Of a stretch of DNA of 64,000 nucleotides, positions 31,196 through 61,914 are shown one piece after another. Under the pieces are notes generated by a model. The model searched no databases, was not told the origin of the DNA, and worked only from the letters and a program-made list of their open reading frames with translations. Position 1 is the stretch's first letter; every line of letters starts with the position of its first letter. Source of the DNA: a virus; IMG/VR virus record IMGVR_UViG_3300010224_000001, positions 128,001 to 192,000 of that record. One strand, given 5' to 3'. A program made the position numbers and the translations under genes.

Positions 31196-31212
31196 CTCAG
31201 TTCCCTACCAGA

Positions 31213-33402: not shown

Positions 33403-33493
33403 GTTTGTAACCTATCCTTGCTTTATAAATAAAAGAAAAAAGGCTTTGGGGCTTTTGCCTCAAATCATTAGTAATTAATTACTTACTTTTGTT

Positions 33494-38070: not shown

Positions 38071-38091
38071 ACTAATAATAACGGTGAAAAC

Positions 38092-38826: not shown

Positions 38827-38887
38827 GCAAGTGGTTGAATTATATAGTTTACTCCCCCGTAACCTCTGTATTTAAGGAATTGATCAA

Positions 38888-46906: not shown

Positions 46907-47254
46907 TTAGGTATTAAAGAAATCGTAGATAAACTTTGCCGCCTTATAATACTCGTCGCATGTAAAATTGTGAACACCAGCTTGCACTGGAGCAACTTGC
47001 GTTGTCGAGTTAGGATCCTGATGCTCGCCGACAAACACACAAGCAGCATCGTTACCATTTCGAGAAGCGTAGACCCAGACGACTTTACCGGACACTTGGT
47101 CGAGTACACGTAAGGCAGAAACATCACCTAACGTTTCAGGACCCACCGCTAACTTGACATCAGTTACGACGTTATCATTGTCGTTAATTACCAGCAGACA
47201 AGCTACCACGGCTTCAGCAATCAACAAACTTGAATCTTTTTGAATCGTCAGCAT
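46907..47254 (-). CDS. hypothetical protein
   Basis: ORF with SD. Confidence 0.65.
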   Translation of the reverse strand: MLTIQKDSSLLIAEAVVACLLVINDNDNVVTDVKLAVGPETLGDVSALRVLDQVSGKVVWVYASRNGNDAACVFVGEHQDPNSTTQVAPVQAGVHNFTCDEYYKAAKFIYDFFNT

Positions 47255-47270
47255 TGTAAATTCCCTTTGT

Positions 47271-47825
47271 TTAGATTTCCCAACTACCTTTAAATTTACG
47301 GATCATAGAAGACCGACCATGATCCTTACCTGGAAGCTTTGCCCATTGTTCAGTGGCAGAGAGAGCTAACAGGTTCACAACATCACGCCTTATGTCTCTA
47401 GAGACAGAATGATCTAGTCTTAGAACGATAAAGGTTTCTGGCAGATCAATCTCTTTGCCAGTTTGGAGAAGATAGGAACCGTAAGGAGGTTCGCCCCTCA
47501 TGATCTCTTCGCAGAACAACATGTTGGCTTGTTTGCTTTTCTCGAAAGACTCCTCGATAACCTGGATGCCAGGAAATAGTTCTAGTGAACGCACCACAAG
47601 CTTGTGATGAAGTTCTTCCCAGAGGTTATCAATGAATGCTTTTACTTTGTCACGTTCTTCCTGTTTTGAAACTCGGAATGTGAATGGAATAAGTGTAGAA
47701 GCATACCCCATTGTAGCCGCGATACCCTCTTTCGAAACAAACGGCGGATCGACAATCTCGTAATCTGCTACCGAGATCAGGACAGTGCCGTCGCCGAATG
47801 GTTTTACGAAAGCATCATAATTCAT
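47271..47825 (-). CDS. hypothetical protein (divergent family B)
   Basis: RSLELFPGI...GEPPYGSY resembles family B. Confidence 0.65.
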   Translation of the reverse strand: MNYDAFVKPFGDGTVLISVADYEIVDPPFVSKEGIAATMGYASTLIPFTFRVSKQEERDKVKAFIDNLWEELHHKLVVRSLELFPGIQVIEESFEKSKQANMLFCEEIMRGEPPYGSYLLQTGKEIDLPETFIVLRLDHSVSRDIRRDVVNLLALSATEQWAKLPGKDHGRSSMIRKFKGSWEI

Positions 47826-48595
47826 GACGGTTCCTCACCAAACAATTCATCGAACAGAAGCTCAATGGATTTCATTGCAGCTTCAATGTCGTAATACAGA
47901 TAAACCTTCTCTTCGTAGAGCGGATTACCGGTCTGTACGAACTCCATCAGAAGCTCGCCTGGCATTTTACGATTCTTTTCTTTATCGTAATTAACCACGT
48001 ACCCGTACCGAGCTAATACATAACCCTTTTTGATGAGGGTGTCAATCAACTCGTAAGCAAGCGCGGTATTGGATCCTCGATCACGTTCGCCATCTGCATC
48101 AGGATGTTCGTAAGCGTAGTTATACGCAACTGTTTGTACTTGTTTGAGATCAGTCTCAGGAGTCATGCTGACATCCTGGAGTAAAGTCTCGACATCGTAA
48201 TCAAACTTGTCTTTATAACCTTCCTTTGTCCCAAGCGCCAAGACCGTCATGGACAGTTCTTCAATCTTGCTGTTGCCAGCTTGATTGATAAGGCGCACGC
48301 AATTAACAAGACCAGTTTCTTCTTTATTGATGATGTTAATATCAGGTCCAGCCGCCGCGAACATGAGTTCCATGCTACTGGCGAATACCTCATGATTAGC
48401 CAGCCGATGTAATGTTTCGTAAAACATCGCTAGCGTGAGATTATAATCATTTTGCGTAGTACCTTTCAGCATACCGTCAAAATGGTCAATGTAAATCTTA
48501 GCACGCTCTCGAATCGTGTTGTTGGCATTAGTGAGGTCTTGTTTGATTTGTTGGCGTTTAGCGAGAGCGTCTTGAAAGTTGGTAATGTTTATCAT
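47822..48595 (-). CDS. hypothetical protein
   Basis: 257 aa ORF, SD AAGGA. Confidence 0.7.
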   Translation of the reverse strand: MINITNFQDALAKRQQIKQDLTNANNTIRERAKIYIDHFDGMLKGTTQNDYNLTLAMFYETLHRLANHEVFASSMELMFAAAGPDINIINKEETGLVNCVRLINQAGNSKIEELSMTVLALGTKEGYKDKFDYDVETLLQDVSMTPETDLKQVQTVAYNYAYEHPDADGERDRGSNTALAYELIDTLIKKGYVLARYGYVVNYDKEKNRKMPGELLMEFVQTGNPLYEEKVYLYYDIEAAMKSIELLFDELFGEEPS

Positions 48596-48600
48596 TTTAG

Positions 48601-48975
48601 TTATTCCTTATCCGTCATCGTTTTTAGCATTTCCGGGACTCGGTAGACTTCATTGTAGAAGTGATCTATCGTAAGCTTAGGATCAGTGATGCTGTAGAAA
48701 CTACGGATCTCTTCTTCCGTATACAAACCGGAATCAAGAAAACCGCTCATCTCTAATGTATCTTTAAACGTTACGTCTTCGAGATCCTGTAATTCCATCT
48801 TAGCCAGCATGGCCTTAGCCATTGCTACTGTAGCGTCGAAATGGATCATGTCTTCCGATACTTGATCAGGAGGCAGCATCTTTGCGCGTAGCTTCTCCAT
48901 ATCGAAAATACTGCGGCGTATCGTCGCGATGTTACTACGCACGGTTTGGGAGCGAACACATTTACTTCGCAACAT
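48601..48975 (-). CDS. hypothetical protein
   Basis: Start MLRSKC after SD AAGGAG. Confidence 0.65.
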   Translation of the reverse strand: MLRSKCVRSQTVRSNIATIRRSIFDMEKLRAKMLPPDQVSEDMIHFDATVAMAKAMLAKMELQDLEDVTFKDTLEMSGFLDSGLYTEEEIRSFYSITDPKLTIDHFYNEVYRVPEMLKTMTDKE

Positions 48976-48985
48976 AACAGTCTCC

Positions 48986-49528
48986 TTAATCAAACAGTTC
49001 TTCAGCAGAGATGGAGGGTCGTTCACGATAGTCATCGTAAGCTTGAGCATGTGCTGCTGCAAAACCGTTGTTTTCAGTTGTGACGATGGGGTGATCGAAA
49101 TTCCAGTTGTACTTATCGTACTCGTTGGATTTATAGTCCGTCACGTAACGATCATCGTTCTTCTGAGGATCGTATTGCGGAATCAAAACCATTGCCGGTA
49201 CGCGACCATGCCCTTTATCTAGCATCTGCAAAATGCTATTAGCAACGCCGTGACAGAGTTCGCTCTGCGTGAGATGCAGAGGCTTGTTATTCGCCCAGTC
49301 TTCCGCGATGTACCAAGCCTGCACGCCAATCTCATTAGCCTGAAGATCATCGCTAGCGGGTTCCATGGGATTGGAAGCGTCCGGATCTTTCTGCTGATCC
49401 AACACAGTAGACCTGACACCCACACCTTGTGGTTTATAGCTGCCCGGTTTTACGACTTCTTCGATCACTCGGTCTATATCACTGCGACCAATCTGATCTA
49501 CGCTGAGTACTTTTCCATCGACTTTCAT
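48986..49528 (-). CDS. hypothetical protein (paralog family C)
   Basis: WYIAEDWANNKP..CHGVA..SAEELFD. Confidence 0.75.
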   Translation of the reverse strand: MKVDGKVLSVDQIGRSDIDRVIEEVVKPGSYKPQGVGVRSTVLDQQKDPDASNPMEPASDDLQANEIGVQAWYIAEDWANNKPLHLTQSELCHGVANSILQMLDKGHGRVPAMVLIPQYDPQKNDDRYVTDYKSNEYDKYNWNFDHPIVTTENNGFAAAHAQAYDDYRERPSISAEELFD

Positions 49529-49555
49529 GTCACACTCCTTTCTAAGAAGCTACAC

Positions 49556-49978
49556 TTAAATCTTGACGATCTTACGGAAACGACCGCCTACGGCAAAGTT
49601 ATTGATCAGTTCATGCACTGCGTTCGATTTACTTACAGCACCCATTGTGACGCTATGTTGCGTAACTTTATTCTTGACAATGAATTTTGCAAATCGCAGT
49701 GACACAGTTTCTGGCTGGGTACTCTTATTGAGTTTAACCTCGACAAAGCTGTCCATCTTCATACCGAGATCACGGCATGTGAATTTGACAATACCCATCG
49801 GCGCATAATCGCCATTGAAATCAAAGTCGATTTCTGCGGTAGCTTCGAGTGAGCCACTTACGTCAGGGAAGTAGATGCTGCGAGGAGTGCGATTGTTTCG
49901 CAATTCATCAATGAGAGGAAGCATGAAGTTAAATTCTTCACGGTTTTCCAGCTTAGCTTCGTTGATAATAACTTCCAT
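49556..49978 (-). CDS. hypothetical protein
   Basis: ORF in operon. Confidence 0.65.
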   Translation of the reverse strand: MEVIINEAKLENREEFNFMLPLIDELRNNRTPRSIYFPDVSGSLEATAEIDFDFNGDYAPMGIVKFTCRDLGMKMDSFVEVKLNKSTQPETVSLRFAKFIVKNKVTQHSVTMGAVSKSNAVHELINNFAVGGRFRKIVKI

Positions 49979-49986
49979 TGTTCTTG

Positions 49987-50409
49987 TTACCTTTTCTTGT
50001 TCGTAAAAGTTGATTCAGACAGACTAAAAGAGCGCACAATGCGTTCGAAACTACCCTCAGGGGTAATCTCAAACACAAAGGCGTAAATCGTTTTGGGGCG
50101 CTGTATGTTCTCGCAAATGCGTAACACCAGCTGTCCTGGAATGTTGGACATCCAAGTCAAAGACGCTTTGATCTCGGCTTCTTCGTTATCAAGCTCTTTC
50201 TTGATGCTGAAAACGTAAGTCGCAATCGTATCGGTAATTTGTTGTTTGAGCGCTTTGTTAGGAGTGCAGGTGCGAATCAAATCTGCTAGTGTATCGGCAG
50301 TGGTCCACATCACTGCATTTTGCATGTAGAGGAAAATGCCAGGATGTTCATTTCCTCGGGTAGCACGCATGAAGTTTCTAAACCAGATCGGTTGTTCGAG
50401 CGAATACAT
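49987..50409 (-). CDS. hypothetical protein
   Basis: First ORF downstream of the omegaRNA-like region. Confidence 0.65.
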   Translation of the reverse strand: MYSLEQPIWFRNFMRATRGNEHPGIFLYMQNAVMWTTADTLADLIRTCTPNKALKQQITDTIATYVFSIKKELDNEEAEIKASLTWMSNIPGQLVLRICENIQRPKTIYAFVFEITPEGSFERIVRSFSLSESTFTNKKR

Positions 50410-50449
50410 GTAAGCTTCTTTCTTGAGTTTTTAATAAACAGGAGTCCTC

Positions 50450-50560
50450 TGGCTGACTCTCTAATGGTAATCTGGCATTCCTCAATTTCAGGATTCCTGC
50501 TGCTGATCGCTCCACTACACGATTCACTTGACAGGCTAGCTGGGTCTACCCGGCCCTTGT
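50450..50560 (-). ncRNA. TnpB omegaRNA (reRNA) scaffold plus putative guide
   Basis: GGGCCGGGTAGACCCAGCTAGCCTGTCAAGTGAATCG...CAGCAGGAATCC resembles IS605-family tnpB 3' RNA scaffolds; boundaries approximate. Confidence 0.7.
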
Positions 50561-50574
50561 AAAGTTAAAGTAAT

Positions 50575-51753
50575 TTATCTAGCGAAGCTAAATTCTGAAG
50601 CCTTGTTGTAAATATTCATAGCTGCCACTACATCAGCATTGTTAGAATATCCGCAATCAATGCAACAAAACTGTGATTGTGTCTTACGATTCTCTTTAGC
50701 TACAAAGGAACAGCTAGGACAAGTTTGACTAGTGTGTTTAGCGTTTACAACAGCTAAATAAGAACCATACCAACCACACTTGTAGGAGATTTGTCTTAAT
50801 AGCTCACCCCAACCTTGCTGTAGGATAGAGCGATTAAGTCCTCGTTTCTGAGCCACATTCCTACCAGGCTGTTCAATCGTACCTCTAGAACTCTTTGACA
50901 TTTGAGTAATCTTCAAATCTTCCATAATCACCGCGGCGTGGTTTTTGCTGATGTAAGATGAAAGTTTGTGAAGAGTATCATTACGCATGTCGGAAATACG
51001 TTTATGTTGCTTTGCTACTTTAAGTTTTGCTTCGTCGTGATTACGAGAACCTTTGACTTTACGAGTAAATCTTTTCTGTAAAATCTTGAGCTTTTCATAA
51101 GTTTCTCTCATTCGAGGATTATGATCAGTTATCTTGACTAGAGATCCATCAAAGGTAGTTGCTAGATGAACAATTCCAACATCAACTCCTATCGACTTAT
51201 TTGAAGTATTATATCTTTTCTCAATCTCGATTTCGCACAGAACGTTCGCATACCAGTGACCGGCTCTGTGCGAGATGGTAATTGACTTCGGAATACCTTC
51301 TAACGATCTATCTTTTCTATACTTAACTAACCCTACCTTTGGTAGCTTTAAATGCTTTTCTCTAATTTCGAAATATTGAGGAATCCTAAATGAATCACTA
51401 ATACCTTTCTTTTTGAATTGAGGGTAATTAGATTCTTTTCTAAAAAAGCGTTGAAAAGCCATACCAAGATTAGCAAGACTCTGCTGAAGGACTTGTCCAG
51501 AGCAATCGTTTAACCAGAAAGTATCAGGATTTTTCTTAAGTAACACTAACTCATTGCTTAATGAAAATACATTTACACTGATACTTTGCTGATGAAGTTC
51601 TTTCCAGCGCGCTAACCCCCAGTTATAAACAAAACGAGAACAACCGGAGAATTGCTTGAATATTTTCTCTTGTGCTGCATTACAGTCAAGTTTATATTTA
51701 AACGTTTTGTTGATTTTATTGACCCTTCTAGAAGGGTCTGATGAAACTATCAT
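50575..51753 (-). CDS. tnpB: TnpB RNA-guided endonuclease (IS200/IS605 family)
   Basis: N-terminal HTH (CSRFVYNWGL), RuvC-I GVDVG, RuvC-II MEDL, Zn finger TSQTCPSC..CIDC, RuvC-III NADVVAAMNI. Confidence 0.95.
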   Translation of the reverse strand: MIVSSDPSRRVNKINKTFKYKLDCNAAQEKIFKQFSGCSRFVYNWGLARWKELHQQSISVNVFSLSNELVLLKKNPDTFWLNDCSGQVLQQSLANLGMAFQRFFRKESNYPQFKKKGISDSFRIPQYFEIREKHLKLPKVGLVKYRKDRSLEGIPKSITISHRAGHWYANVLCEIEIEKRYNTSNKSIGVDVGIVHLATTFDGSLVKITDHNPRMRETYEKLKILQKRFTRKVKGSRNHDEAKLKVAKQHKRISDMRNDTLHKLSSYISKNHAAVIMEDLKITQMSKSSRGTIEQPGRNVAQKRGLNRSILQQGWGELLRQISYKCGWYGSYLAVVNAKHTSQTCPSCSFVAKENRKTQSQFCCIDCGYSNNADVVAAMNIYNKASEFSFAR

Positions 51754-51795
51754 CTTTACCTCCTTTGAAGAAAGATAATCGTAGTGTATATGTTA

Positions 51796-51814
51796 GTAAT
51801 ATATACTTGAAAAA
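51796..51814 (-). promoter_or_regulatory. phage early promoter upstream of tnpB
   Basis: TTTTTCAAGTATATATTAC (exact TATATTAC) about 42 nt before the tnpB ATG; SD AAAGGAGGT. Confidence 0.75.
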
Positions 51815-51835
51815 CTATCTAGTCTAAAAATGAAC

Positions 51836-51885
51836 AAAAAAAAGAATAGCCTAAGCCATTCTTTTTGTAGACCCGAAGGTCTACG
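51836..51885 (-). terminator. tandem hairpin terminator
   Basis: GTAGAC-CTTCGG-GTCTAC then AAAAAGAATGGC-TTAG-GCTATTCTTTTTTTT on the minus strand. Confidence 0.75.
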
Positions 51886-51891
51886 TTTATA

Positions 51892-52056
51892 TCAAGCACA
51901 CCACCAAGGACGTTTCCATGGATCGTTAGAACGAGCACAGATGAAAGCTTCGGTGCGTTCAATGGCGGTGGGTTCCTTACCAGTCTTTCTGCGGTAAGTG
52001 TCCAAGCACTCGCGATAAAGCGTGGCAGCTTTACCTTTGAGTTGAATGATTGCCAT
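51892..52056 (-). CDS. small hypothetical protein (54 aa, not in ORF track)
   Basis: MAIIQLKGKAATLYRECLDTYRRKTGKEPT..., SD GGGAGAG. Confidence 0.6.
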   Translation of the reverse strand: MAIIQLKGKAATLYRECLDTYRRKTGKEPTAIERTEAFICARSNDPWKRPWWCA

Positions 52057-52067
52057 TAGACTCTCCC

Positions 52068-52328
52068 TTATCCTGAAACCACGTTGAAAGTCTTATGAAA
52101 GTCCACAGCGGTGTAGACCTCCGTCAGTTCTTTGTTGGGCATCTTGACAACGAAGTTGCCAGGACGAACCATCACTGCATCACGGAGCATGTCCATCTGG
52201 CTGGCGTTGACCCATGCAGTGCCATTCTTATCCGTAGTGACAAGACGACACTTTACGCCTGGCTGCCATTCCCAGGCTTCACCCTGAACAACTATGGGTT
52301 CTACCTTGAGCTTTGCAGTAGTTTTCAT
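52068..52328 (-). CDS. hypothetical protein (PGDYG-like)
   Basis: VRPGNFVVK...DFHKTF pattern. Confidence 0.6.
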   Translation of the reverse strand: MKTTAKLKVEPIVVQGEAWEWQPGVKCRLVTTDKNGTAWVNASQMDMLRDAVMVRPGNFVVKMPNKELTEVYTAVDFHKTFNVVSG

Positions 52329-52329
52329 T

Positions 52330-53616
52330 TTAGTCCTTCTTATTAGGGTCCGAGGTAAAATTACCTTCTTCGGTTTCACCATCATCGATGTAGGTAGTTT
52401 TATCGGACAACATTTCATCTGAACCAGGATCGTTATCAGCAAACTTCACAAGCAGTAATTCATCATCGCCAATGTATGGAATGAGGCGACTTTTCAGATC
52501 ATCCCTGGTAAACTTGACAGTTTCTGGAAGACCTTTAACGACCTCACTGATAAGTTCCTGACGATGTTTCAGACTACCATCATACTCCATAACCTCATCG
52601 CCTTCGCGCGGAATATGTTTTTCCGCGTTAGCCATGAGTTGCTCCTGCTCCATCCTTGCAAACTTCTGCTTGAGAAGATCACCCAAGCTAGGTGGATTAC
52701 CTTGTTTGTCTTTAGGACGAGTAAGCTCAGCTGGAGATTCGAGAAACGCGCCAGCAACTGCGCTGTTGCATAACTTAATTGGTTTTCCATCTTCTCCGGT
52801 TGGTGGAAATGAGAACATTCCCGGAATGAATGGACTGTCAGAAGTATCGTCAGATGCGACAAGATCTGCGGTGACATCGTAGTCACGATAACCGCTAGGA
52901 ACATACTTGTCAGCGTCATCGAAAATTACAACCGCACGAGGAATGGAATCCAAAGCATTCATGGATTTCATGATGTCTCCGTCATATTCTTCCTGCGCTG
53001 TATAAGCTTTCATGCGGCACTTCGGAATAAGACGTTTGACAACTTGATGAAGCTTCTTCTTGCTAACATGGTAACGATGCGGGCCATCAAATGTTTTGGT
53101 TGGCTCAATGACTTTGACGATATGCGTGTCGAAAATCATACCGACGAGTTTCTCATGATTCACAAGCTCGTCAGGTTTCATGTACTTATTAGAAACGTAC
53201 ATGACCAAATCATCGAAGGCACTTACATCGTAATAGGAAGGGTGCTTGATCCAACCGTATTGAATCGCCAGGTAATTCTCTACCTCCCAGAATTCTTTGA
53301 AGAAAGCACTGTCGTCACCGTTATCGATCATTGCCACACCTGGAGCACGGTGAGTGATCTCCAACACATTCAAAATGCTATATGTTTCTGGTTCAGCATT
53401 TTCTTTTGGAGTGTACCAAATATGCGCCATCGGTTTGCCGGTGATGACGTAATTGTCCGGCGTGTTCTTACTCAGCTTCTGAACTTCCAGCTTGATGTGT
53501 ACAGCGTCAATTACCTTTCCATCAGAATGGCTGTATGCTTTAACCACAGCGATTGTACCTTTGCTGAAGAAGGCAGGCGAGAACTTACGACGATACGGAT
53601 TAAATTTGTTGCTCAT
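52330..53616 (-). CDS. hypothetical protein (paralog family D)
   Basis: FSPAFFSKGT, RAPGVA, VSKKKL..KC.M..Y.AQ shared with 53662..54564. Confidence 0.75.
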   Translation of the reverse strand: MSNKFNPYRRKFSPAFFSKGTIAVVKAYSHSDGKVIDAVHIKLEVQKLSKNTPDNYVITGKPMAHIWYTPKENAEPETYSILNVLEITHRAPGVAMIDNGDDSAFFKEFWEVENYLAIQYGWIKHPSYYDVSAFDDLVMYVSNKYMKPDELVNHEKLVGMIFDTHIVKVIEPTKTFDGPHRYHVSKKKLHQVVKRLIPKCRMKAYTAQEEYDGDIMKSMNALDSIPRAVVIFDDADKYVPSGYRDYDVTADLVASDDTSDSPFIPGMFSFPPTGEDGKPIKLCNSAVAGAFLESPAELTRPKDKQGNPPSLGDLLKQKFARMEQEQLMANAEKHIPREGDEVMEYDGSLKHRQELISEVVKGLPETVKFTRDDLKSRLIPYIGDDELLLVKFADNDPGSDEMLSDKTTYIDDGETEEGNFTSDPNKKD

Positions 53617-53661
53617 TTTGATTCTCCTTTATTGATTATTAACAGCTAAATAGTGAATGGA

Positions 53662-54564
53662 TTAGGAAAAGAAATCGTCGCCGAAATGTGCTTCCATCAT
53701 GCGGTCATCTTCGCGAGCACACATGTCGCACATCATTCCGGTACCTTTATTGACATAGCGTTCATAACAAGTATTGCAAACCGGGATATTCTTGCTACAG
53801 TCACCCGGATCTTCCATCATCATCTGTTTATGACCGTGTTCATTGACTGTTTCGAAACGAATAGCGCGGTCGTCTTCACGATCATCCGGATCATCATGCA
53901 AGTGTTCCCATTCACGGTCGTTTTCGTCTTGTGCCTTGTATTGATTCATCAAGCACTTGTTGAAAACACGTTTGATGGCTTTACGCAGCTTCTTCTTATT
54001 GACAGAAGACATGTAACCCCAATCGACATTATCGAGATGGAAGATGTGCTGTTGCCTCAACAACGAAACCATCTTTTCCACATCGATGACGTGATCCATG
54101 GAGTTAGCTATTTCGAAGGCAATGCCGCCGACTAGTCGATTAACGTCCATCACCTTGTAGCGCGAATGGTGTTTTACTTCAGTCGGATCATAGCAGCGCA
54201 TGTTGTTCTTGACGTTTTCGTCAAAGAACTCCTTCAGATATTTCTTGTTCGGCACGCCATAACCGTGACCGGCTTCATGAACCACTGCGACGCCTGGAGC
54301 GCGCTTGATGATCTTCCTCACGTAGCAGATGTTGAACGCTTCGTTACACCCCGTAACATCCTTGAACACCGGAGTTTCCAGGATGTAACTGTGAGGACCA
54401 TTCTTGATCAGCCGCTTGACCTCAATTGTCAGATCGCCGCCACAGACGTTGACAACGCAGGTTGTACCTACGGTAAAGAAAGCGGTCGAGAACGGATGCG
54501 TTTCTTTACGTTCTTTACGGGAATTCTTGTATTCGTTTGATTTGGTATTGACTTGAGTGTTCAT
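53662..54564 (-). CDS. hypothetical protein (paralog family D) with C-terminal Zn finger
   Basis: FSTAFFTVGT, RAPGVA; CNTC..CDMC. Confidence 0.75.
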   Translation of the reverse strand: MNTQVNTKSNEYKNSRKERKETHPFSTAFFTVGTTCVVNVCGGDLTIEVKRLIKNGPHSYILETPVFKDVTGCNEAFNICYVRKIIKRAPGVAVVHEAGHGYGVPNKKYLKEFFDENVKNNMRCYDPTEVKHHSRYKVMDVNRLVGGIAFEIANSMDHVIDVEKMVSLLRQQHIFHLDNVDWGYMSSVNKKKLRKAIKRVFNKCLMNQYKAQDENDREWEHLHDDPDDREDDRAIRFETVNEHGHKQMMMEDPGDCSKNIPVCNTCYERYVNKGTGMMCDMCAREDDRMMEAHFGDDFFS

Positions 54565-54605
54565 GATGGACTTTCCTTTCTAATTGGTTATTAAGAGTGC
54601 AGCAT

Positions 54606-55145
54606 TTAGATGTGAACGAAACCGGACGTTGCTGTGGGGTCTCCCGACACCCAGAGTGAAAGATATTTGGATCGCGGTTGCTCGGACGAAAGGTAGTGAT
54701 CGATCATCTTGGTGATTTCGATAACATAACCTTTACCGAGCGGGTATTCTACGATCTTTGCGATCGTTCCTTCGACCACCGCCCGCGTATTAAGGAAGTA
54801 ACAATGAATCAAGACCTTGCCACCTTCGGCTTTATCACGAGGTAGGTATTCTTTACGCACTGCCTTAAGAATGGGATGGGGATTACCACCTTTGAAGTTG
54901 GAAATTGCTTTTGCAAACATTTCTTCATCTGAAGAAGTCCATTGCACTTCTTCGTTAACTTCGTAGTAATCTTTTTTGCTGTAAGCTTCTTGCAGAGCGA
55001 TTGCAGCTTTTGCCAGTTCGGTCTTACCAGGGGACATCGGTTTACCTTCGAGATGCCACTGAACATAAAGACCAACAAGCTTCATGTTCATGTTTTCAAC
55101 CGGAACAGAAGAAGCTTGCAGTTGTTGATCGATAGTAAAAGACAT
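54606..55145 (-). CDS. hypothetical protein
   Basis: ORF with SD and leader motif. Confidence 0.7.
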   Translation of the reverse strand: MSFTIDQQLQASSVPVENMNMKLVGLYVQWHLEGKPMSPGKTELAKAAIALQEAYSKKDYYEVNEEVQWTSSDEEMFAKAISNFKGGNPHPILKAVRKEYLPRDKAEGGKVLIHCYFLNTRAVVEGTIAKIVEYPLGKGYVIEITKMIDHYLSSEQPRSKYLSLWVSGDPTATSGFVHI

Positions 55146-55189
55146 GGGGATTCCTTATAGTTGATTATTAGTTAACAGCATAAATAAAA

Positions 55190-55222
55190 GGAGAGTGATA
55201 CCGTTATTCTGGTATCACTCTA
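55190..55222 (-). terminator. terminator hairpin
   Basis: AGAGTGATACC-GTTATTCT-GGTATCACTCT, followed by TTTTATTTATG on the minus strand. Confidence 0.75.
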
Positions 55223-55232
55223 CTGGGTTGTA

Positions 55233-55766
55233 TTACGTGAAAAGGATTTCGGCTTTGGTGTAACCCAGCGAAGCCATACCCCATTTGAGATGGAGCCAGT
55301 CGATTTGATCTTGCTTCAAGCTGTCCATAAGACCGAGCGTCATGATGCCGACACTAAGTCCTGGGAATTTCGCAGTGAAGAATTGCTCCACACACTCAGT
55401 CAACTGCTCCTCACTCAGACCGCTCTTTTTGAGAGCTTCCTTGAAGATGTTAGCGAAATGATGATGTTCCTCGATTTTCGACGAGGTCATTTCGACAACG
55501 ACTTCAAATGGATCTTCGACACTGACAGTGACCCATTCAACATCCGCAAAATCCGGATCAGCTTTCAAGGTTTCCAGATCAACCAGACTAACGGTAGACG
55601 GGTAACCGAGTTCGCGTGACGTGACCAGATGACTAACAATTGCATCACGCGCATTCGTAACCGCTTCGTCTTTGGTATCACCAGAGCTAAAACAACCCAG
55701 CAGATTAGCTATCGTAACACCGTAGCATCTTTCTTGACCTTTGTGAATCGCTAGATAGTAATTCAT
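55233..55766 (-). CDS. HicB-like antitoxin domain protein
   Basis: YLAIHK...YGVTIANLLGCFSSGDTKDEAVTNARDAIVSHL is the HicB N-terminal pattern. Confidence 0.8.
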   Translation of the reverse strand: MNYYLAIHKGQERCYGVTIANLLGCFSSGDTKDEAVTNARDAIVSHLVTSRELGYPSTVSLVDLETLKADPDFADVEWVTVSVEDPFEVVVEMTSSKIEEHHHFANIFKEALKKSGLSEEQLTECVEQFFTAKFPGLSVGIMTLGLMDSLKQDQIDWLHLKWGMASLGYTKAEILFT

Positions 55767-55778
55767 CTACTCCCTTTC

Positions 55779-57029
55779 TTAATAGGCTTGTTGCAAGGCC
55801 GGATCACCGTAATGACCGCCGTAACCACGACCATTACGCCACGGCATACGGACACGCTCGAACTCTTCCTGGGCTTCACGGAACTTGGCATGGTAAGCGT
55901 CGCGGTCAATATAACGGCAGATGTAAGACACGTCGCCTTTCTTGAACTCGAGCTTAGTCTTGTCGTCAGCGAAGTAGCCCACGAAATCATCTTGCGACAG
56001 CTTGATCGTCACGTTCTCGGCAGACTTCTTGTCTTCCTTGAATTCGTAATACGACACGTCGATAGAGAATTTATCTTTGTTCAGATAAACGCCCTGGAAG
56101 CTACCGACTGCTGTGCCAGTGTGGACTTCTTTGCAATCCTGATACGCCTTCATTTCGAAGTACGAGTTAGTATTGCGACCATTGGTGGCCATGATCTCGA
56201 TGCACTCGTTCAGATCGTTGTCGAACTGATTCATCTCTTCAACGAAACTTGCCATGCCGTCAAAGTTCATGCCAACCTTATCGTTAGCATGCGACAGAGC
56301 CAAATGAACGAATGCACCAACATGTGATTCATCTTTGTCTTTCAGATGTTCACGCACATATTCTTCAACCGTGTTCACATCCATGTGCTTAAAGCGAATG
56401 ATGTAACGAACGCGGGAAGGACGATCTTGCAGGTACTTCGAGATCAAATGCATGTCGTTGGCCGTGAGGACGGTAAGTTTCTTACCTGAAGCTGAAACAC
56501 CGTCGAGCACTTGCAGAATCGAATCCTGCGCTTTCGAACCGTACTGCTGACCATGTTTATTCTGCTCGCTATACGTTTTGCAGAATTCATCGAAGGCCAG
56601 CATACAGTCCTGCGTGATCGAAGCCAGGAAGCTGACAAACAAATCACCAGCGTAAGGCTGATTGATCAGAATCACCGGCATATCCAGATCAATTGCAGCT
56701 TTAGCCATTGCCTTGAGGGTAATGGTTTTGCCAGAACCACGTTCGCCTACCAGCAGCGCGCCGAGGTTCTTGTTGTTGATGCAATACGACTTGAAGAAGC
56801 GGTCGATGTTCTTGAGCACATTACCATAGACACGCTTGGGAAGCTCAAAGTCGAGTGCAGGTTTCAGATAGAAGTAAGCTTCAGTCTGGGTTTCATGATA
56901 GCTGAGGATATACACCCCGGCAGGCAGTTTAGTACTAGGTTGATGGCGCGGCACCGTACCGACGCGAAACGTCTTGTCTGCGATCTCATGAAAGTTGTAC
57001 TGAATCTCGTCTTTCTTGGGATTTGCCAT
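55779..57029 (-). CDS. AAA+ ATPase
   Basis: GERGSGKT Walker A, FDEF Walker B, LTAN sensor, DRPSR Arg finger. Confidence 0.9.
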   Translation of the reverse strand: MANPKKDEIQYNFHEIADKTFRVGTVPRHQPSTKLPAGVYILSYHETQTEAYFYLKPALDFELPKRVYGNVLKNIDRFFKSYCINNKNLGALLVGERGSGKTITLKAMAKAAIDLDMPVILINQPYAGDLFVSFLASITQDCMLAFDEFCKTYSEQNKHGQQYGSKAQDSILQVLDGVSASGKKLTVLTANDMHLISKYLQDRPSRVRYIIRFKHMDVNTVEEYVREHLKDKDESHVGAFVHLALSHANDKVGMNFDGMASFVEEMNQFDNDLNECIEIMATNGRNTNSYFEMKAYQDCKEVHTGTAVGSFQGVYLNKDKFSIDVSYYEFKEDKKSAENVTIKLSQDDFVGYFADDKTKLEFKKGDVSYICRYIDRDAYHAKFREAQEEFERVRMPWRNGRGYGGHYGDPALQQAY

Positions 57030-57086
57030 AGTTGGACTTACTCCTATATTGGTTAAAAAAGAGGCAATGTAAATTGCCCCTCTCGT

Positions 57087-57680
57087 TTATTGCACAGCTG
57101 ATGGGGTCATTGCTGTGATCTTGCCATCGAAGCCGTAGACTGGCTCCAGCATAGCCAGTTCAAGAGCGTCTTCGATAGATACGTTGTCGATGCGAACCAA
57201 GGTCAGAATACTGATCAAGGTATCGGCATCGAGTTTGAAAAGCTTGGTCATCACCTCGTCGCTATCAGCGCCGATCATTGCAACCAAGGTAGCCTTCAAG
57301 GTGTAGCTGCCGGTAATGAAACCAGCGCCGAGCTTGATGAAGAGTGGTTTACCTTTAGTGACTTCCATCACACGGTCCAGAACGACGTTCTTGTACTGTT
57401 CCGGGATACCTTTGTTGAACGGATTATTCACAGCGCTGTAGTAAGCCGCTTCCATCAGCAGCTTCATTTCTTCAGCACTACCTTCGTAGGTGACGACGTC
57501 GATGCAGTCGAGCACGCGCGTCTTGATCACCACTTTGGTATCCGTGACATCCTGCACAGTGCCACCGAAACCGATCTCGTGTTTCAGCAGACCATACAGA
57601 GCACGCGGTACGTCTTGTTCGCGATCAGACGGAAACACTTCACCGTACGGTTTATAACGAACGTCGGTAATTTTGATCAT
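57087..57680 (-). CDS. hypothetical protein
   Basis: First gene after an early promoter. Confidence 0.75.
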   Translation of the reverse strand: MIKITDVRYKPYGEVFPSDREQDVPRALYGLLKHEIGFGGTVQDVTDTKVVIKTRVLDCIDVVTYEGSAEEMKLLMEAAYYSAVNNPFNKGIPEQYKNVVLDRVMEVTKGKPLFIKLGAGFITGSYTLKATLVAMIGADSDEVMTKLFKLDADTLISILTLVRIDNVSIEDALELAMLEPVYGFDGKITAMTPSAVQ

Positions 57681-57764
57681 GATAAATCCTTTCAGTTTTG
57701 TAATTGGTTATTAGTAAGTGAATAAACATTTCGATAGAAAACACACAGTTCTCTATTCACGCCA

Positions 57765-57783
57765 ATGATATATATCTGAAAAT
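57765..57783 (-). promoter_or_regulatory. phage early promoter
   Basis: ATTTTCAGATATATATCAT. Confidence 0.65.
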
Positions 57784-57800
57784 TTTTATCGCCATACAAA

Positions 57801-57832
57801 AAAATAAAGAGGGCCGGAACCCTCTTTATTTA
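57801..57832. terminator. terminator hairpin
   Basis: AAATAAAGAGGG-CCGGAA-CCCTCTTTATTT. Confidence 0.75.
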
Positions 57833-57846
57833 TGCTGCTTTATTTT

Positions 57847-58665
57847 TTAGAACGTTTTGGTGACCAGCCAGTTCATAGCTGCTTGCACTACCACTTCAGC
57901 GTCAGTGTCAGGAGTATCGGGGAAAACATCTTCCGATTTCTGCGCAGGAGAGCCGTCGCTCTTGAGATAAGAAAGACGCACCGAACCATCTTCCATACCC
58001 ATCAAACGAATCATTTGCTGCATGTTGCCAGTGCTGGAACCAGCGCGGATACCAATCACACCCGGCTTGCGATCGAATACCGCACCAATCACATTGCTCT
58101 TGTAAAGACGAGACATAACTTCAACAGCAATCTCGAGCAGATGCATCGAGTCTTTCACGGTTTCTGCTTGCAGGGCTTCTTGCAGCTTTGCTTTATCGCA
58201 GTTACCGTTATTTACCCAATCTTCAACAATGTGAATAATGCGCTGACGTTGTGATTCGTTAACGGCGTTGTTGATGTACGAGCTGATCAGTAAATTGTGG
58301 GAATTGTCCTGACCATTACCAGCAGCATTGTCCGCTTGAGGATGCGGTTGGATCTGGTAGCTTGTGCTGTAAGCCGTAGCGTTCGGAGCATTGTCCGACG
58401 TAGTTGCAGTATCGGAAGCTTGATTACCATTGCTGGAAGCAGCACCTTCAGCGTAATCGGAAGCCGTGGCACCTGCGGCGATTTCATGACCAGGCTTGAT
58501 GTCAGCCAATACAACAGCCGGAGCTACAGCATCGCTAGCGCCTTCAGCATTGACTGTCTGGCCAGGAATCGGTTGCTGCGTCTGTGGAAGACTTGCCAAC
58601 TGTCGCTCAACATTTTCTTCCGGCATGCTGGTGACTGTGGGCTTGTCGGCTTCATTGATGCTCAT
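57847..58665 (-). CDS. hypothetical protein with disordered A/Q/N-rich N-terminus
   Basis: Start MSINEADK after SD AAGGAG. Confidence 0.7.
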   Translation of the reverse strand: MSINEADKPTVTSMPEENVERQLASLPQTQQPIPGQTVNAEGASDAVAPAVVLADIKPGHEIAAGATASDYAEGAASSNGNQASDTATTSDNAPNATAYSTSYQIQPHPQADNAAGNGQDNSHNLLISSYINNAVNESQRQRIIHIVEDWVNNGNCDKAKLQEALQAETVKDSMHLLEIAVEVMSRLYKSNVIGAVFDRKPGVIGIRAGSSTGNMQQMIRLMGMEDGSVRLSYLKSDGSPAQKSEDVFPDTPDTDAEVVVQAAMNWLVTKTF

Positions 58666-58726
58666 GACTTCTCCTTTCATTAACAACAAAGAAATGCAAG
58701 AGGGTTAGAGTCTCTTGCTCTAGAAC

Positions 58727-58945
58727 TTAATGCGTTGTCGATGGCTTACCAGGATAACCTAACGAACCTAACGGGAACTGGAGTCCAAATGTGGTGTTAT
58801 TACGTGTCTTGCCGCTTGGAAAACGCGCAATGCCATCTTCCCCAATAGTGACGTTGTATTGTTTATCAAAGTCAGCCAGAGCTTGAATAGAGCGAGCTTG
58901 AATCTCTTCTTTTTCTTCCTGAGTCATTTCGGAGATAGATTTCAT
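58727..58945 (-). CDS. hypothetical protein
   Basis: SD AAGGAG. Confidence 0.65.
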   Translation of the reverse strand: MKSISEMTQEEKEEIQARSIQALADFDKQYNVTIGEDGIARFPSGKTRNNTTFGLQFPLGSLGYPGKPSTTH

Positions 58946-58947
58946 CT

Positions 58948-59673
58948 TTATTCTCCTTTATTCTGATGTGAGCTAGCTGTAAAGTCGATTTGACGATGCC
59001 GTGGTTTAGACGGGTGGATGTTGGCGTTGATACGAACTTCCTTACTGAGGAATTCTGCAAGGGTTTCGTCTTCTGCAGTTCCGCGCACAGCCATCCCTTT
59101 TAGGAGGTCGTCAAGGATTTCAATAGGTTCTTCGGCTTCGATGCGTTTGAAATTATTGAAACCGTGCTTAGTGAGACCTTCGATAAGAATGGCTTCAATG
59201 AGTGTTTTGCCGGTATGATGATAGCCACCAATAAGCACTTCAAGCGGTGCTTTACGATGATTATCGAATTGCGCTTCACACAAACGCTGATCGGCGTTGT
59301 ATGCAGCATTGGTAAAGCTAATGTTCGGAAGACGGTTGATTTGGAGAGCCCGAAGAGCAGTCACTTCTTCCTGCAGTTGACTAATCTTTTCATGCAGCGA
59401 TACTTCAGACACTTGCATGAGTGCCATTTGCTGAATGATGAATTCCACATGCGGCAGTAGCGGTTGTTCGTCAATTACGATACCGCTGCCATTTTTCATT
59501 TGCAGCAGTTTCTCAGCACGTTTCGCAATCAGGATAATGACGCTGTTATCACCACCCATCAGTGCGATCTCAGGTTCATTCTCCATCTTGGAGATGATTT
59601 GATCTTCCGTCAAACCTGCCTGATGCAGAGCCGCCATGCGATTGCGCACGTATTCCAGATTACTAGCCGACAT
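58948..59673 (-). CDS. hypothetical protein with P-loop-like motif
   Basis: VLIGGYHHTGKTLI. Confidence 0.65.
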   Translation of the reverse strand: MSASNLEYVRNRMAALHQAGLTEDQIISKMENEPEIALMGGDNSVIILIAKRAEKLLQMKNGSGIVIDEQPLLPHVEFIIQQMALMQVSEVSLHEKISQLQEEVTALRALQINRLPNISFTNAAYNADQRLCEAQFDNHRKAPLEVLIGGYHHTGKTLIEAILIEGLTKHGFNNFKRIEAEEPIEILDDLLKGMAVRGTAEDETLAEFLSKEVRINANIHPSKPRHRQIDFTASSHQNKGE

Positions 59674-60241
59674 TAGCTTCTCCTTCTTGTTGGGTTTGTG
59701 CTTCTTCTTCAGTAATGTTGACCTGAATATGTTTGGCCTTCATGGCACGTACTTGATTAGCCGTACCTTCGTAGACAGAGTGGTAACCAGTTGCGCTCTT
59801 ATCGCCATCACTTTGTGCGAGATGTTCTTCCCATTCCTTCTTCAAGCCATCTGCTGCCGTTTGCAGCTTGTCTGCAATGTGATCAACGGCTTGATTGTAG
59901 GCTTGCAGAGCGACTTTTTCCAGGTCTTGTTGCGTTATAGCTTTATCGGCCATCTCGCGTTCCTTGCGGATCATCAAACCTTCTACAACCATTTGACCCA
60001 GGTAGCAACGAACAGTTTCTTGCAACAGCAAGAGTTCAATACCGACGATTGGACGATCCAGCGAAATCGTACCATCTTCTTCATGAATCTTCAGGTTGAC
60101 ACGGTCTCGAGCATCAATCACCACCTTACGACCATCCGATAATTCGGTATCGTAATAAGGTTGCGATATTAACGTAGCGATGATTTGATCCGGGTCTACA
60201 CCTTGTTCTTGCAGTATTTTAAACTGTTGCTCCAAAATCAT
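59663..60241 (-). CDS. hypothetical protein
   Basis: N-terminus resembles that of 58948..59673 (QGVDPDQII vs AGLTEDQII). Confidence 0.65.
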   Translation of the reverse strand: MILEQQFKILQEQGVDPDQIIATLISQPYYDTELSDGRKVVIDARDRVNLKIHEEDGTISLDRPIVGIELLLLQETVRCYLGQMVVEGLMIRKEREMADKAITQQDLEKVALQAYNQAVDHIADKLQTAADGLKKEWEEHLAQSDGDKSATGYHSVYEGTANQVRAMKAKHIQVNITEEEAQTQQEGEANVG

Positions 60242-60626
60242 TTTCTTTCCTTTTTGCTATTTGTATTTTGAATTGCTTCATGCCGTTACTAACTACTTGG
60301 CGAATCCTCTTTAACCAATCGCGATCATGTTCACGTAATGCTACGATAGCATGCTCGCTGATCTTGTTGAGAATCGCGAATTCTTCAAACTCAATACCGT
60401 CACTGGTTTGAGCTTTATAGATCATCTCAGAGATCTGTTTGAAGGTGTTGTTGATAAAGAAATCATTACAACCATTAAAGAACTGATCGACTGTAGCGTA
60501 ACGATTGGTATCTTTTACGGCTTCTAATAACTTCTCAACAGTAAAGTTATCAGGATCAAATTCATAATTTACTGCCAGTAAAGCAGCGTAGACTTTTTCA
60601 AGCTTCTTGCGGCTCACGATGTACAT
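60219..60626 (-). CDS. hypothetical protein
   Basis: Start MYIVSRKK after SD GAGGAG. Confidence 0.65.
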   Translation of the reverse strand: MYIVSRKKLEKVYAALLAVNYEFDPDNFTVEKLLEAVKDTNRYATVDQFFNGCNDFFINNTFKQISEMIYKAQTSDGIEFEEFAILNKISEHAIVALREHDRDWLKRIRQVVSNGMKQFKIQIAKRKENDFGATV

Positions 60627-60810
60627 CGATATTCTCCTCGGCTTGCTCTTTATCGTCCGACCAGATTTCGCGTTCGCGACCGCATTTGATACACTCTCTT
60701 TCATTCGGATTGTGACCTACGCCGCAACGACAGATCCAGCGTGTGTTCGGATAGACGATAGCGCTTTTCACAGGGTCCCACGGTGATGCGGATGTAGCAA
60801 CTCGTTTCAT
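60598..60810 (-). CDS. small Zn-finger protein
   Basis: WICRCG..N...CIKCG (RanBP2-like). Confidence 0.55.
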   Translation of the reverse strand: MKRVATSASPWDPVKSAIVYPNTRWICRCGVGHNPNERECIKCGREREIWSDDKEQAEENIDVHREPQEA

Positions 60811-60861
60811 GTCGTAATAAGTAGAGATAAGGATTACCCTACCTCTACTCCTCTCCTATTG

Positions 60862-61278
60862 TTAATTGTTTTCAGTAGGCGTAGGGATAAACCCTTTTGC
60901 CAAGTATTTGTGAACATCCCTGTGCGCAATTGACATTTCATGTATCTGATAGCCAATTGCCGCTGCGTACTTTTGCGGTTGATGATTCACGGTACGACCA
61001 AACAGGATCACCATGTCTACACCATTCTCTGCCAAACTAATGCTGACGTAGCGAGCGCTATCTGGTGGCGACAAATGAAAACCAAGCAAGGTCACATTGC
61101 CTACCGTCACAAGCTTGATTCGATATACGCGAATAAAGTCACCATTCAAAGGAGCAACACGATGGTAACGAATTGCTTTGCTATTTTCTAGCTTCTTTGT
61201 ACCGGTGATAACTTCTAATGCCATCTCTTCGATTCGACGCACTTGTTGCTCATTCCAACGCGGAATAGTCATGGCCAT
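60862..61278 (-). CDS. hypothetical protein
   Basis: C-terminus (AHRDVHKYLAKGFIP) resembles 61520..61888 (ARRDIVEYLANGITP). Confidence 0.65.
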   Translation of the reverse strand: MAMTIPRWNEQQVRRIEEMALEVITGTKKLENSKAIRYHRVAPLNGDFIRVYRIKLVTVGNVTLLGFHLSPPDSARYVSISLAENGVDMVILFGRTVNHQPQKYAAAIGYQIHEMSIAHRDVHKYLAKGFIPTPTENN

Positions 61279-61508
61279 TATCTGTCTCCTTTCCTTGTTA
61301 TCATTATCAGCTCAAATGGTGAGTAATGATAGGAAGCAAAGAAAAGAGCGCAACCTACAATGAACAGAATAACGGCAAACAGCAACTCTCTGTTCCATTT
61401 GCCGTTATAGCTCATGACACTAAAGCAGACGCAGACGTAAGCTGCAATCCAGCAGCCGACACCAAGTAAGATCAAAACAATCAAGCCTACAATTGCAAGT
61501 GGATTCAT
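61278..61508 (-). CDS. small membrane protein
   Basis: Two TM helices. Confidence 0.65.
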   Translation of the reverse strand: MNPLAIVGLIVLILLGVGCWIAAYVCVCFSVMSYNGKWNRELLFAVILFIVGCALFFASYHYSPFELIMITRKGDR

Positions 61509-61519
61509 GTTTGTTTTTA

Positions 61520-61888
61520 TTAGAGGTTGGTAGGAACAGGTGTAATCCCGTTGGCAAGATACTCGACGATATCTCGACGCGCAATATCGATTTCTTCTGG
61601 CTTATACGCAATCGCGATCTTGGTACTCGTTGGTTTCTTTCGATGCAATACATGGAAGCACAGAACAAACTTACCAGTTAGACGTTTAGTCGAAATGGCC
61701 ACAAACGGACCAGTATCAGGCTTCCAGTCAGCAGGCATCATTCGGTGTTCTACACGTGGTAGACGAAAGAAGAACGCGATACTCGGATCCAGAGTACGAT
61801 AAATACGATAGTTATGCGAATAACGATCCTTCTCAAGCAACTCAATGTTGGGAAGGATCTTTTGAATCATATCTTGCGCAACGGGCAT
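61520..61888 (-). CDS. hypothetical protein
   Basis: Probable paralog of 60862..61278. Confidence 0.65.
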   Translation of the reverse strand: MPVAQDMIQKILPNIELLEKDRYSHNYRIYRTLDPSIAFFFRLPRVEHRMMPADWKPDTGPFVAISTKRLTGKFVLCFHVLHRKKPTSTKIAIAYKPEEIDIARRDIVEYLANGITPVPTNL

Positions 61889-61914
61889 TTTTTCTTATTC
61901 CTTTTTATTGGTAT

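Follow-up and report, generated by a model that had tools for sequence, protein, structure and literature searches.

Sequence evidence for a TnpB-omegaRNA element embedded in early-type promoters of chimallin-encoding jumbo phages

Why should a gene for a TnpB-type RNA-guided nuclease stand directly behind what appears to be an early promoter of a giant phage? TnpB genes are common in phages and are usually read as passenger insertion sequences. The question was raised by a tnpB gene (392 aa, ATG start, positions 50575..51753, assigned from the open reading frame [ORF] call, Pfam, and NCBIfam) in a 64,000-nt stretch of viral DNA, here called the window, which corresponds to bases 128001-192000 of the 322,570-bp IMG/VR record IMGVR_UViG_3300010224_000001. 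The phage of this record is referred to as G000. Positions are those of the window unless stated otherwise, and the gene, like the other features of this locus described below, lies on the minus strand. A first-pass annotation had proposed that the phage domesticated the nuclease for use at the start of infection, possibly against host DNA, prophages, plasmids, or competing phages. Our preferred reading, held at evenly balanced confidence, is a TnpB-omegaRNA element that is adapted to phages, does not depend on TnpA, is wired to early promoters, and serves homing or competition rather than attack on the host.

The assignment of the protein is supported by the following data. All three Pfam domains scored above their cut-offs (HTH_OrfB_IS605, 2.9e-14; OrfB_IS605, 8.8e-22; Cas12f1-like_TNB, 1e-19), the match to NCBIfam guided_TnpB scored 289.7 bits (cut-off, 100), and the protein aligned end to end with the ISDra2 TnpB structures 8H1J and 8EXA (E 3e-54). 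Homology to ISDra2 TnpB (8H1J, 8EXA, and 8BF8) extends over the full length and includes the same D-E-D RuvC residues and zinc finger. The three RuvC motifs listed in the first-pass annotation, GVDVG (D191), MEDL (E278), and NAD (D374), were found to be invariant in 15/15 aligned sequences, as were the cysteines of the CxxC...CxxC zinc finger (C345, C348, C364, and C367). Comparison with the orthologue of a second phage, G001, gave proportions of nonsynonymous and synonymous differences (pN and pS) of 0.31 and 0.79, respectively; since the synonymous sites are saturated at this pN, the protein is deduced to be under constraint. TnpB looks catalytically intact from its sequence, and TAM-dependent (target-adjacent motif-dependent) RNA-guided cleavage would be its expected activity.

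The carrier, judged by its gene content, is a chimallin-encoding jumbo phage with Chimalliviridae-type features. The G000 record is rated 100% complete, has terminal repeats, and encodes a chimallin homologue (651-aa frame, genome positions 37256-39088, minus strand) that matches phiKZ gp054 at residues 20-617 of 626 (E 1.2e-27). It also encodes a phiKZ-type RNA polymerase subunit, a 539-aa beta'-like protein that matches proteins annotated in other records as beta/beta' subunits of phage RNA polymerase, and a 729-aa phiKZ-type major capsid protein (phrog_3231) whose best named relative is from Burkholderia phage FLC9 (48%), followed by those of Ralstonia phages RP12 and RP31 (40%). G001, a 218.7-kb contig with a capsid protein and chimallin, is on the same kind of evidence a related jumbo phage: 154 mechanically called G000 ORFs had a BLASTP partner in G001, in long syntenic runs with a core identity of ~25 to 57%. 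A third phage, G002 (221.5-kb contig), is ~70% identical to G001 in shared genes and also carries chimallin, so that a phiKZ gp054 homologue is present in 3/3 genomes. G002 has no tnpB and no Y1 transposase in the 82% of the genome on record (PF01797, 0/2 records).

The promoter in front of G000 tnpB consists of a T-rich tract followed by GTATATATTAC (51796..51826, with a 19-nt core at 51814->51796) and is also a 9/12 match to a sigma-70-like promoter. The gap from the motif to the ATG is exactly 42 nt (leader, 51754..51795) and contains the Shine-Dalgarno (SD) sequence AAAGGAGGT (51766->51758, 4 nt before the ATG). The earlier description of a strong SD directly behind a phage promoter motif was thus borne out, and the motif occurs more often than expected by chance: there were two matches at ≤3 mismatches in the window (0.02 expected), eight sites at ≤2 mismatches in the genome, every one of them minus-strand (0.6 on average in shuffles), and four at ≤1 mismatch (none in shuffles). 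Since the motif pattern was built partly from the tnpB copy, the zero-mismatch score of that copy is partly by construction. The 42-nt leader contains no hairpin and does not resemble the sequence upstream of the G001 orthologue; the 5' flanks of the two genes gave no alignment.

According to PMC7598289, each jumbo phage that encodes its own RNA polymerase has its own AT-rich motif of ~10 nt near position -10 of its early genes. PMC8244752 describes the phiKZ early motif as an extended -10 box preceded by a T-rich tract, with leaders of typically 31 to 40 nt, and notes that the chimallin gene gp054 carries the early motif. The layout at G000 tnpB fits this description; by that analogy, and from the motif family in front of chimallin in G001 and G002, its transcription would be early. 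Upstream of the G000 chimallin gene (160 nt), only a looser variant was present, a T-rich tract with CTATATCAC; the motif family of G001 and G002 also precedes their chimallin homologues, there as canonical members. A literature search for the 8-mer TATATTAC, which we take to lie within the phiKZ early consensus, returned unrelated papers only.

The same arrangement was found with a different motif in the related phages. G001 tnpB begins 28 nt behind AAATTATAACCACATATCAC, which is unlike the G000 motif. Allowing ≤2 mismatches, it has 13 sites in G001 (0.8 expected), of which all but one, 12, are plus-strand; the G002 motif occurs at nine sites at ≤2 mismatches, eight of them on the minus strand (0.47 expected). 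G000 tnpB, G001 tnpB, and an omegaRNA scaffold standing alone in G002 are each placed directly behind a zero-mismatch member of their motif; all three have short leaders, and both tnpB copies have strong SDs. As read from these motifs, two distantly related phages have each put this TnpB under a promoter of their own type.

The omegaRNA scaffold of G000 covers 86 nt (50473..50558) and starts after a 16-nt spacer behind the tnpB stop, wholly outside the ORF. It is kept over 86 to 88 nt in all three phages, and the sequences flanking the G000 and G001 blocks are unrelated. The consensus of the three scaffolds (RNAalifold) comprised three hairpins with 25 pairs, 6 of which showed compensatory changes. 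A covariance model built on the scaffold gave exactly one match in each of the 3/3 genomes and, furthermore, matched the region directly after tnpB in the distant viral contig L003 (E 6.6e-6). A degenerate scaffold pattern found matches in only two contigs of IMG/VR, those of G001 and G002. The scaffold belongs to no Rfam family (sub-threshold hits to RybB, 22.9 bits versus 40, and to a snoRNA were both deemed chance), and nhmmer with the scaffold on about 160 loci gave one chance-level match (E 0.46). The solo scaffold of G002 (L175 3397-3568, equal to G002:C1 ~13431-13600, minus strand), located with the scaffold pattern, is 84% identical to that of G001. It is preceded by a terminator, the zero-mismatch promoter, and ~63 nt of unrelated sequence, and is followed by the next gene, of which the leader and start are seen; it may be a remnant or a working guide gene.

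The right end of the element was placed by homology with the insertion sequence of the P1-like phage RCS47, which carries the TnpB called insQ, and is uncertain by about 1 nt. On this basis the last base of the G000 right end (...GAGGAATGCCAG, aligned with RCS47 ...GGAGGATGTCAC) would be 50472. The 3' ends of the scaffolds are ...GAGGAATGCCAG in G000, ...GGGAATGTCAT in G001, and ...GAGAATGTCAT in G002, and the bases that follow are ATTAC..., CAC..., and AAC..., respectively. In all three, these bases equal the last bases of the -10 box at the same locus and run on into leader-like sequence; in G000, ATTAC (51800->51796, the last five bases of the motif) recurs directly past the right end. As the right end abuts ATTAC and the leader of the next gene, those bases would form the guide. 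The putative 16-nt guides are ATTACCATTAGAGAGT in G000 (50456..50471, the 3' part of the -10 box and the start of the next gene's leader), CACGCCACTGAGTAGA in G001, and AACCTCGGTGATGTAA in G002.

An empty site was available for one of the three insertions. At the place in G001 that is syntenic to the G002 solo scaffold, a terminator, a promoter (...CCACATATAAC), a leader, and a homologous gene follow each other with no insert, and the G002 sequence past the scaffold aligns with the end of the G001 promoter and its leader. With the right end taken from the RCS47 homology, the insertion point would be ...CACATAT|AAC..., and the same register fits at G001 tnpB (...CACATAT|CAC) and in G000 (...GTATAT|ATTAC). 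All three junctions fit insertion after ...ATAT, with the next 4 to 5 nt the same on both sides of the element. The implied TAM would be about (C/T)ATAT, close to the CTTAT in front of the RCS47 element; in G000 it would be the TATAT at 51801..51805, inside the -10 box, as placed from the G001/G002 empty site and the RCS47-based right end. At the occupied loci the guide is preceded by the right end instead of the TAM, and the sequence past the left promoter departs from the guide after 4 to 5 nt, so the element should not cut its own locus.

In G001 and G002 the sequence past the left promoter resembles the guide, and an 18- to 20-nt imperfect direct repeat was therefore considered as the remnant of a TnpB-cut target (cut and capture). 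This was rejected by a promoter control, since the guide is no closer to its own left junction than to other post-promoter regions; the left-junction similarity was tied 4th of 8 in G000, tied 3rd to 5th of 13 in G001, and tied 3rd to 5th of 9 in G002.

The sequence at the guide position bears directly on what the nuclease might be aimed at. Had it been a fixed early weapon, its guide would be directed against host DNA, prophages, plasmids, or unrelated phages, and the phage's own DNA would be shielded in the nucleus; a cytoplasmic nuclease would not endanger nucleus-enclosed DNA in phiKZ-like phages. The intact nuclease, the phage promoter, the lack of TnpA and of a left end, the collapsed hairpin, the chimallin gene, and the orthologue behind a second chimallin phage's own promoter are all compatible with such a role. 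What stands at the guide position, however, is a leader and the 3' portion of a promoter belonging to the phage itself rather than foreign sequence, and nothing was found that points to host, plasmid, or prophage targets as had been suggested. An 18-nt version of the guide was found in 0/401 sampled genomes of one bacterial order, a candidate host order, at ≤1 mismatch, which is a weak test. An 18-nt guide pattern was likewise found in 0/1 genome at ≤2 mismatches, and the three 16-nt guides had no second match at ≤3 mismatches in G000, G001, or G002. Furthermore, the copies are nonsyntenic and compositionally foreign in both phages, and G001 and G002 do not agree on whether and where they carry the element, which would not be expected of a fixed core function. 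We consider the weapon quite improbable; a selfish homing element that moves among related phages would describe the locus better than a tamed anti-host device.

For the homing or competition element that we favor, the following course is proposed. A TnpA-less IS200/IS605-type TnpB-omegaRNA element would be joined inside the -10 box of an early-type phage promoter, from which the phage transcription machinery would make tnpB mRNA and, with it, the downstream omegaRNA. The promoter core (C/T)ATAT would serve as the TAM, and the complex would recognize the unoccupied promoter-leader junction in cassette-free sibling or co-infecting phage genomes. Repair of the cut by recombination with the carrier would copy the cassette (homing, or gene drive); alternatively, the cut would simply damage the competitor. 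Early timing, the TAM, guide length, nuclease activity, homing, and access to phage DNA are all presumed here from sequence and analogy.

The earlier observation that the window lacks tnpA was extended to the whole 322,570-bp record, in which neither a Y1 transposase (PF01797, 0/1; control, 6/14 genomes) nor a serine recombinase (PF00239, 0/1; control, 12/14 genomes) was detected; tnpB itself is single copy in the complete genome, with no further copies found. The absence of tnpA had been taken as a sign of domestication. That argument is weakened, since tnpA is normally missing in this TnpB group and the RCS47 relative, a plain tnpB-only insertion, also lacks it; by itself the absence says little. 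No left end was recognized by similarity among the three left sides (no significant result, P of 0.31 and 0.42), which agrees with the claim that there is no room for one. In partial conflict with that claim, palindromes with arms of 6 to 8 bp lie in the variable first codons of both orthologues: in G000 a perfect 18-nt palindrome with 8-bp arms at codons ~6-11 (51721..51738) and in G001 one with 6-bp arms at the same place (L002 ~7976-7991), despite differing peptides. These may be a left-end remnant or an mRNA or translational structure. At the right end, a stable hairpin of the TnpA-recognized type was not found: the 8-bp stem is reduced to 4 bp. The terminal hairpin of the jumbo-phage scaffolds has the stem TCCT/AGGA, while the terminal stems of relatives are GC rich and 8 bp long (CCACGCCC/GGGCGTGG in RCS47 and CCTCGCCC/GGGCGAGG in L003).

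The composition of tnpB (GC, 0.369; GC at third codon positions [GC3], 0.316) is foreign to both carriers. Its GC3 is the lowest of 89 shared ORF pairs in both genomes (E < 1e-20; some shadow frames are included in this set), at 0.316 versus a shared-ORF mean of 0.484 +/- 0.070 in G000 and 0.330 versus 0.688 +/- 0.089 in G001. The gene has thus taken on the composition of neither genome, which argues against ancient vertical domestication. The copies do not show the conserved synteny that a comparison across relatives might have revealed: G001 tnpB lies in a different, nonsyntenic variable region, and G001 and G002 differ at both the tnpB locus and the solo-scaffold locus, so that even the place of the scaffold is not shared. 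Together with the low GC3, these differences point to horizontal mobility rather than to a fixed domesticated gene, and vertical descent of tnpB from an ancestor shared by G000 and G001 was rejected as the main story on account of the nonsynteny and GC3. The two tnpB genes are nevertheless anciently diverged, as judged by the saturated pS. Signs of long residence were also evident, namely, ORFs intact at saturated synonymous sites, a co-varying scaffold, reduced TnpA signals, and promoters of the carriers' own type. Of the domestication claim, then, the intact nuclease, the phage-specific promoter, chimallin, the missing TnpA, and the reduced ends stand; the nonsyntenic position and lowest GC3 speak against it. 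PeSL-type cassette shuffling, as in T4-type phages, was neither supported nor excluded as the mover of the cassette.

Comparison with RCS47 bears on another explanation, that of an ordinary tnpB-only insertion sequence whose TAM happened to lie in a promoter, which was moved by a host TnpA in trans, and which is now decaying and inactive. On this view the left end has been lost, the right-end hairpin has collapsed, only a remnant is left in G002, and the phage gains nothing from the element. In RCS47, a 1,335-bp insertion lies between ddrB and ddrA at a site that is clean and empty in P1, with the junctions ...CCTTAT|element...GGAGGATGTCAC|flank. The 3' terminus of another copy, from a Morganella phage, reads ...GGATGTCAA. 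The insQ TnpB of RCS47 and Salmonella phage SJ46 is 41.6 to 41.8% identical to that of G000 over 93% of the length, also in an element without tnpA. The right ends are homologous, with hairpin 1, GCCTGTG(A/G)AG, hairpin 2, a GCAGGAA box, and a ...GGA(A)TG(T/C)CA(N) terminus in common, and the jumbo-phage scaffold is likewise homologous to the right ends of the Morganella and L003 elements. The RCS47 element is inserted after a T-rich ...TAT motif with the guide directly past the end, as proposed for the jumbo-phage copies. Features found only in RCS47 are a left end of 83 nt, an additional ~45-nt module, an 8-bp GC-rich terminal hairpin, and a scaffold overlapping the ORF end; the jumbo-phage copies have no recognizable left end, a 4-bp terminal hairpin, and a scaffold outside the ORF. 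Moreover, the RCS47 element sits between two genes and not in a promoter, whereas the jumbo-phage copies have a promoter at the left junction. That the closest characterized relative is a plain insertion in a P1-like phage would suit an inert passenger, as would the low GC3, the single copy, the unrecognized left end, and the G002 scaffold without tnpB. It is less readily reconciled with two full-length ORFs that keep all catalytic and zinc residues despite saturated synonymous sites, with the compensatory pairs of the scaffold, or with three copies that all follow a zero-mismatch promoter, with short leaders and strong SDs for tnpB. An inert passenger was accordingly judged unlikely.

The position of the guide over promoter and leader sequence also suggests a regulator, that is, a complex that binds but does not cut promoter-proximal DNA of an early gene and so times early transcription. 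TldR repressors, which would act in this way, are phage-encoded TnpB derivatives that target promoters (PMC10705468 and PMC13565253), and the G000 element resembles them in being phage borne and TnpA-less with an adjacent guide RNA and putative promoter targets. TldRs, however, are nuclease dead, whereas the RuvC site and zinc finger of G000 TnpB are intact and its C terminus is not truncated; with all catalytic residues in place, it was concluded that this TnpB is not a TldR. In addition, the guide has no second genomic match, and the bases before it at its own locus are the right end and not the proposed TAM. Regulation of this type was deemed very improbable.

Other known systems can be set beside the homing or competition element. 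As in ISDra2, the guide would follow the right end. The TnpB-omegaRNA mechanism with a guide after the right end was reportedly described by Karvelis in 2021 and Meers in 2023. The TAM of ISDra2 is TTGAT. ISDra2 has TnpA and a longer omegaRNA overlapping the ORF, neither of which applies to G000, and in the G000 clade ~15 extra residues precede the KRGLNR motif. The proposed cutting of a cassette-free allele, driving inheritance or excluding a rival, is akin to what is described for phage homing endonucleases, including intronless homing and the killing of competitors; recognition by the G000 element would differ in being RNA guided. The Seg and Mob enzymes of T4 and the intron endonuclease of PhiPA3 are free-standing and intron homing endonucleases. 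Type V CRISPR-Cas and TnpB with an array differ in that G000 has no array and each genome has one scaffold: no CRISPR array or repeated scaffold was found in window 47000-55000, in which one 9-nt tandem repeat in two copies was the only repeat. Considered together, the locus is, on sequence evidence, a variant of known TnpB elements that is embedded in jumbo-phage early-type promoters.

The distribution of the lineage was deduced from several searches. The protein search returned 2,531 TnpB relatives at E ≤ 1e-20, the closest being 70, 69, 62, 58, 55, and 55% identical. In the IMG/VR profile scan, for which figures refer to the best 80 loci, that of G001 (L002, 58% identical) was the only locus above 39%. 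The best relatives among 185,579 species genomes (one genome each) were ≤43% identical, and 50,697 phage records gave 631 matches, all below 60% with the best at about 42%; the clade at 55 to 70% was thus found in neither collection, both being scans limited by seeds or caps that can miss its members. A megablast search of phages for closer DNA relatives gave no match, a single-protein viral scan found no relatives, and the best of the matches listed in a metagenome scan was only 42%. In L003, the tnpB element (38% identity) has classical paired end hairpins at ~3076-3095 and ~4383-4402 with identical TTCA loops, in contrast with the reduced jumbo-phage copies.

Several observations weigh against the homing or competition element. 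The TAM and guide were derived from a single empty-site pair at ~70% nucleotide identity and from right-end homology with an element whose TnpB shares no more than 42% identity with that of G000. The comparison of occupied and empty sites succeeded in G001 opposite the G002 scaffold; no empty site was found for G000, whose flanking genes have no relatives, and intact insertion sequence ends were not found. The 4 to 5 nt after the putative left TAM (ATTAC, CACGC, and AACC) are the first bases past the right end, and such an identity on both sides is not predicted by peel-and-paste transposition. The absence of a left end, combined with the collapsed right-end hairpin, leaves the arrival at three promoters unexplained, and so does the reading leave the role of the first-codon palindromes. 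The G002 scaffold without tnpB would also fit decay. In single-sequence folding, the scaffold was no better than shuffles (z, -0.37 and +0.40). Among records with visible context, a set that does not include the closer relatives P0001 and P0002 (70 and 69% identity) and P0003 (62%, on a 140-kb contig), the TnpB lineage appears only in chimallin-encoding jumbo phages. Finally, TnpB made in the cytoplasm would need access to DNA inside the phage nucleus.

A more specific hypothesis, which we regard as rather unlikely, is that of a TnpB-omegaRNA lineage specialized, in nucleus-forming jumbo phages, on those early promoters that the virion RNA polymerase uses. In it, the -10 core would be the TAM, and insertion would leave a complete promoter before tnpB, so that nuclease and guide would be produced within minutes of the onset of infection. 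The guide would be the promoter-leader junction of the displaced early gene, and the element could act as a transposase-free RNA-guided gene drive that cripples early genes of cassette-free co-infecting relatives. Stand-alone omegaRNA genes such as that of G002 could then be extra guides or decoys using TnpB in trans.

The surroundings of the locus can be described briefly. Of the tandem terminator proposed upstream of the promoter, an intrinsic-terminator-like hairpin followed by a T-run (51839..51866, with bidirectional A/T tracts) was confirmed; the second, a perfect 7-bp hairpin (51868..51885) just past the stop of a 54-aa ORF (51892..52056, stop at 51892; ORF list), lacks a T-run on the minus strand. 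Downstream, a weak terminator-like hairpin (50442..50459; 5 bp, 8-nt loop, then CTGTTTATT) overlaps the distal guide. For the next gene (140 aa, 49987..50409, from the ORF list), no relatives were found. It lacks a complete promoter motif in front of it, and co-transcription with tnpB is probable. Both tested tnpB-flanking proteins lacked relatives in phage collections. The region is a hypervariable accessory one with a long run of minus-strand genes (window 47000-55000; genome, ~168.5-189.9 kb), and in window 50575-61915 no BLASTP partner in G001 was found except for tnpB. Long mirror ORFs at window 11056-12927 and 31189-33432, opposite real genes such as that of the capsid, are shadow frames and not genes.

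Other G000 motif members, all on the minus strand, lie at window 15642-15660, ~31032-31049, and ~57765-57782 and at genome positions 52866, 59209, 62697, and 83053. A stem-loop comes next but one after the motif in many cases, with TAG..TGAA in between at several G000 sites and C...GTGA in between at the majority of sites in G001 and G002; this arrangement of promoter and stem-loop resembles T4-type phage cassettes. Among listed sequencing runs that contain this DNA there was none of RNA. In three DNA sequencing runs, each with a small share of it, contigs of 150 to 270 nt covered parts of window 50237-52400, with no joints. A 243-nt contig of a root-metagenome run corresponds to window 51804-52047 with three differences and one gap, and a 252-nt contig of another run is identical to window 52044-52295. 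By these matches, G000 or a near relative is present at low depth in other samples.

No paper joining Chimalliviridae with TnpB was found in a full-text literature search, and among the papers listed for TnpB and jumbo phage none had both terms in its title or abstract. The significance of the locus lies in three related chimallin phages that carry the element, or in one case just the scaffold, each at an early-type promoter of its own and with the junction at an equivalent position. The compact TnpB (392 aa) with a short scaffold of ~86 nt outside the ORF may interest genome engineers. For the phages themselves, the finding bears on how mobile nucleases spread without a transposase, on competition among nucleus-forming phages, and on whether a nuclease made in the cytoplasm reaches phage DNA. 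Should the proposed TAM and guide prove correct, giant phages would have a natural system of RNA-guided homing or competition acting between them.

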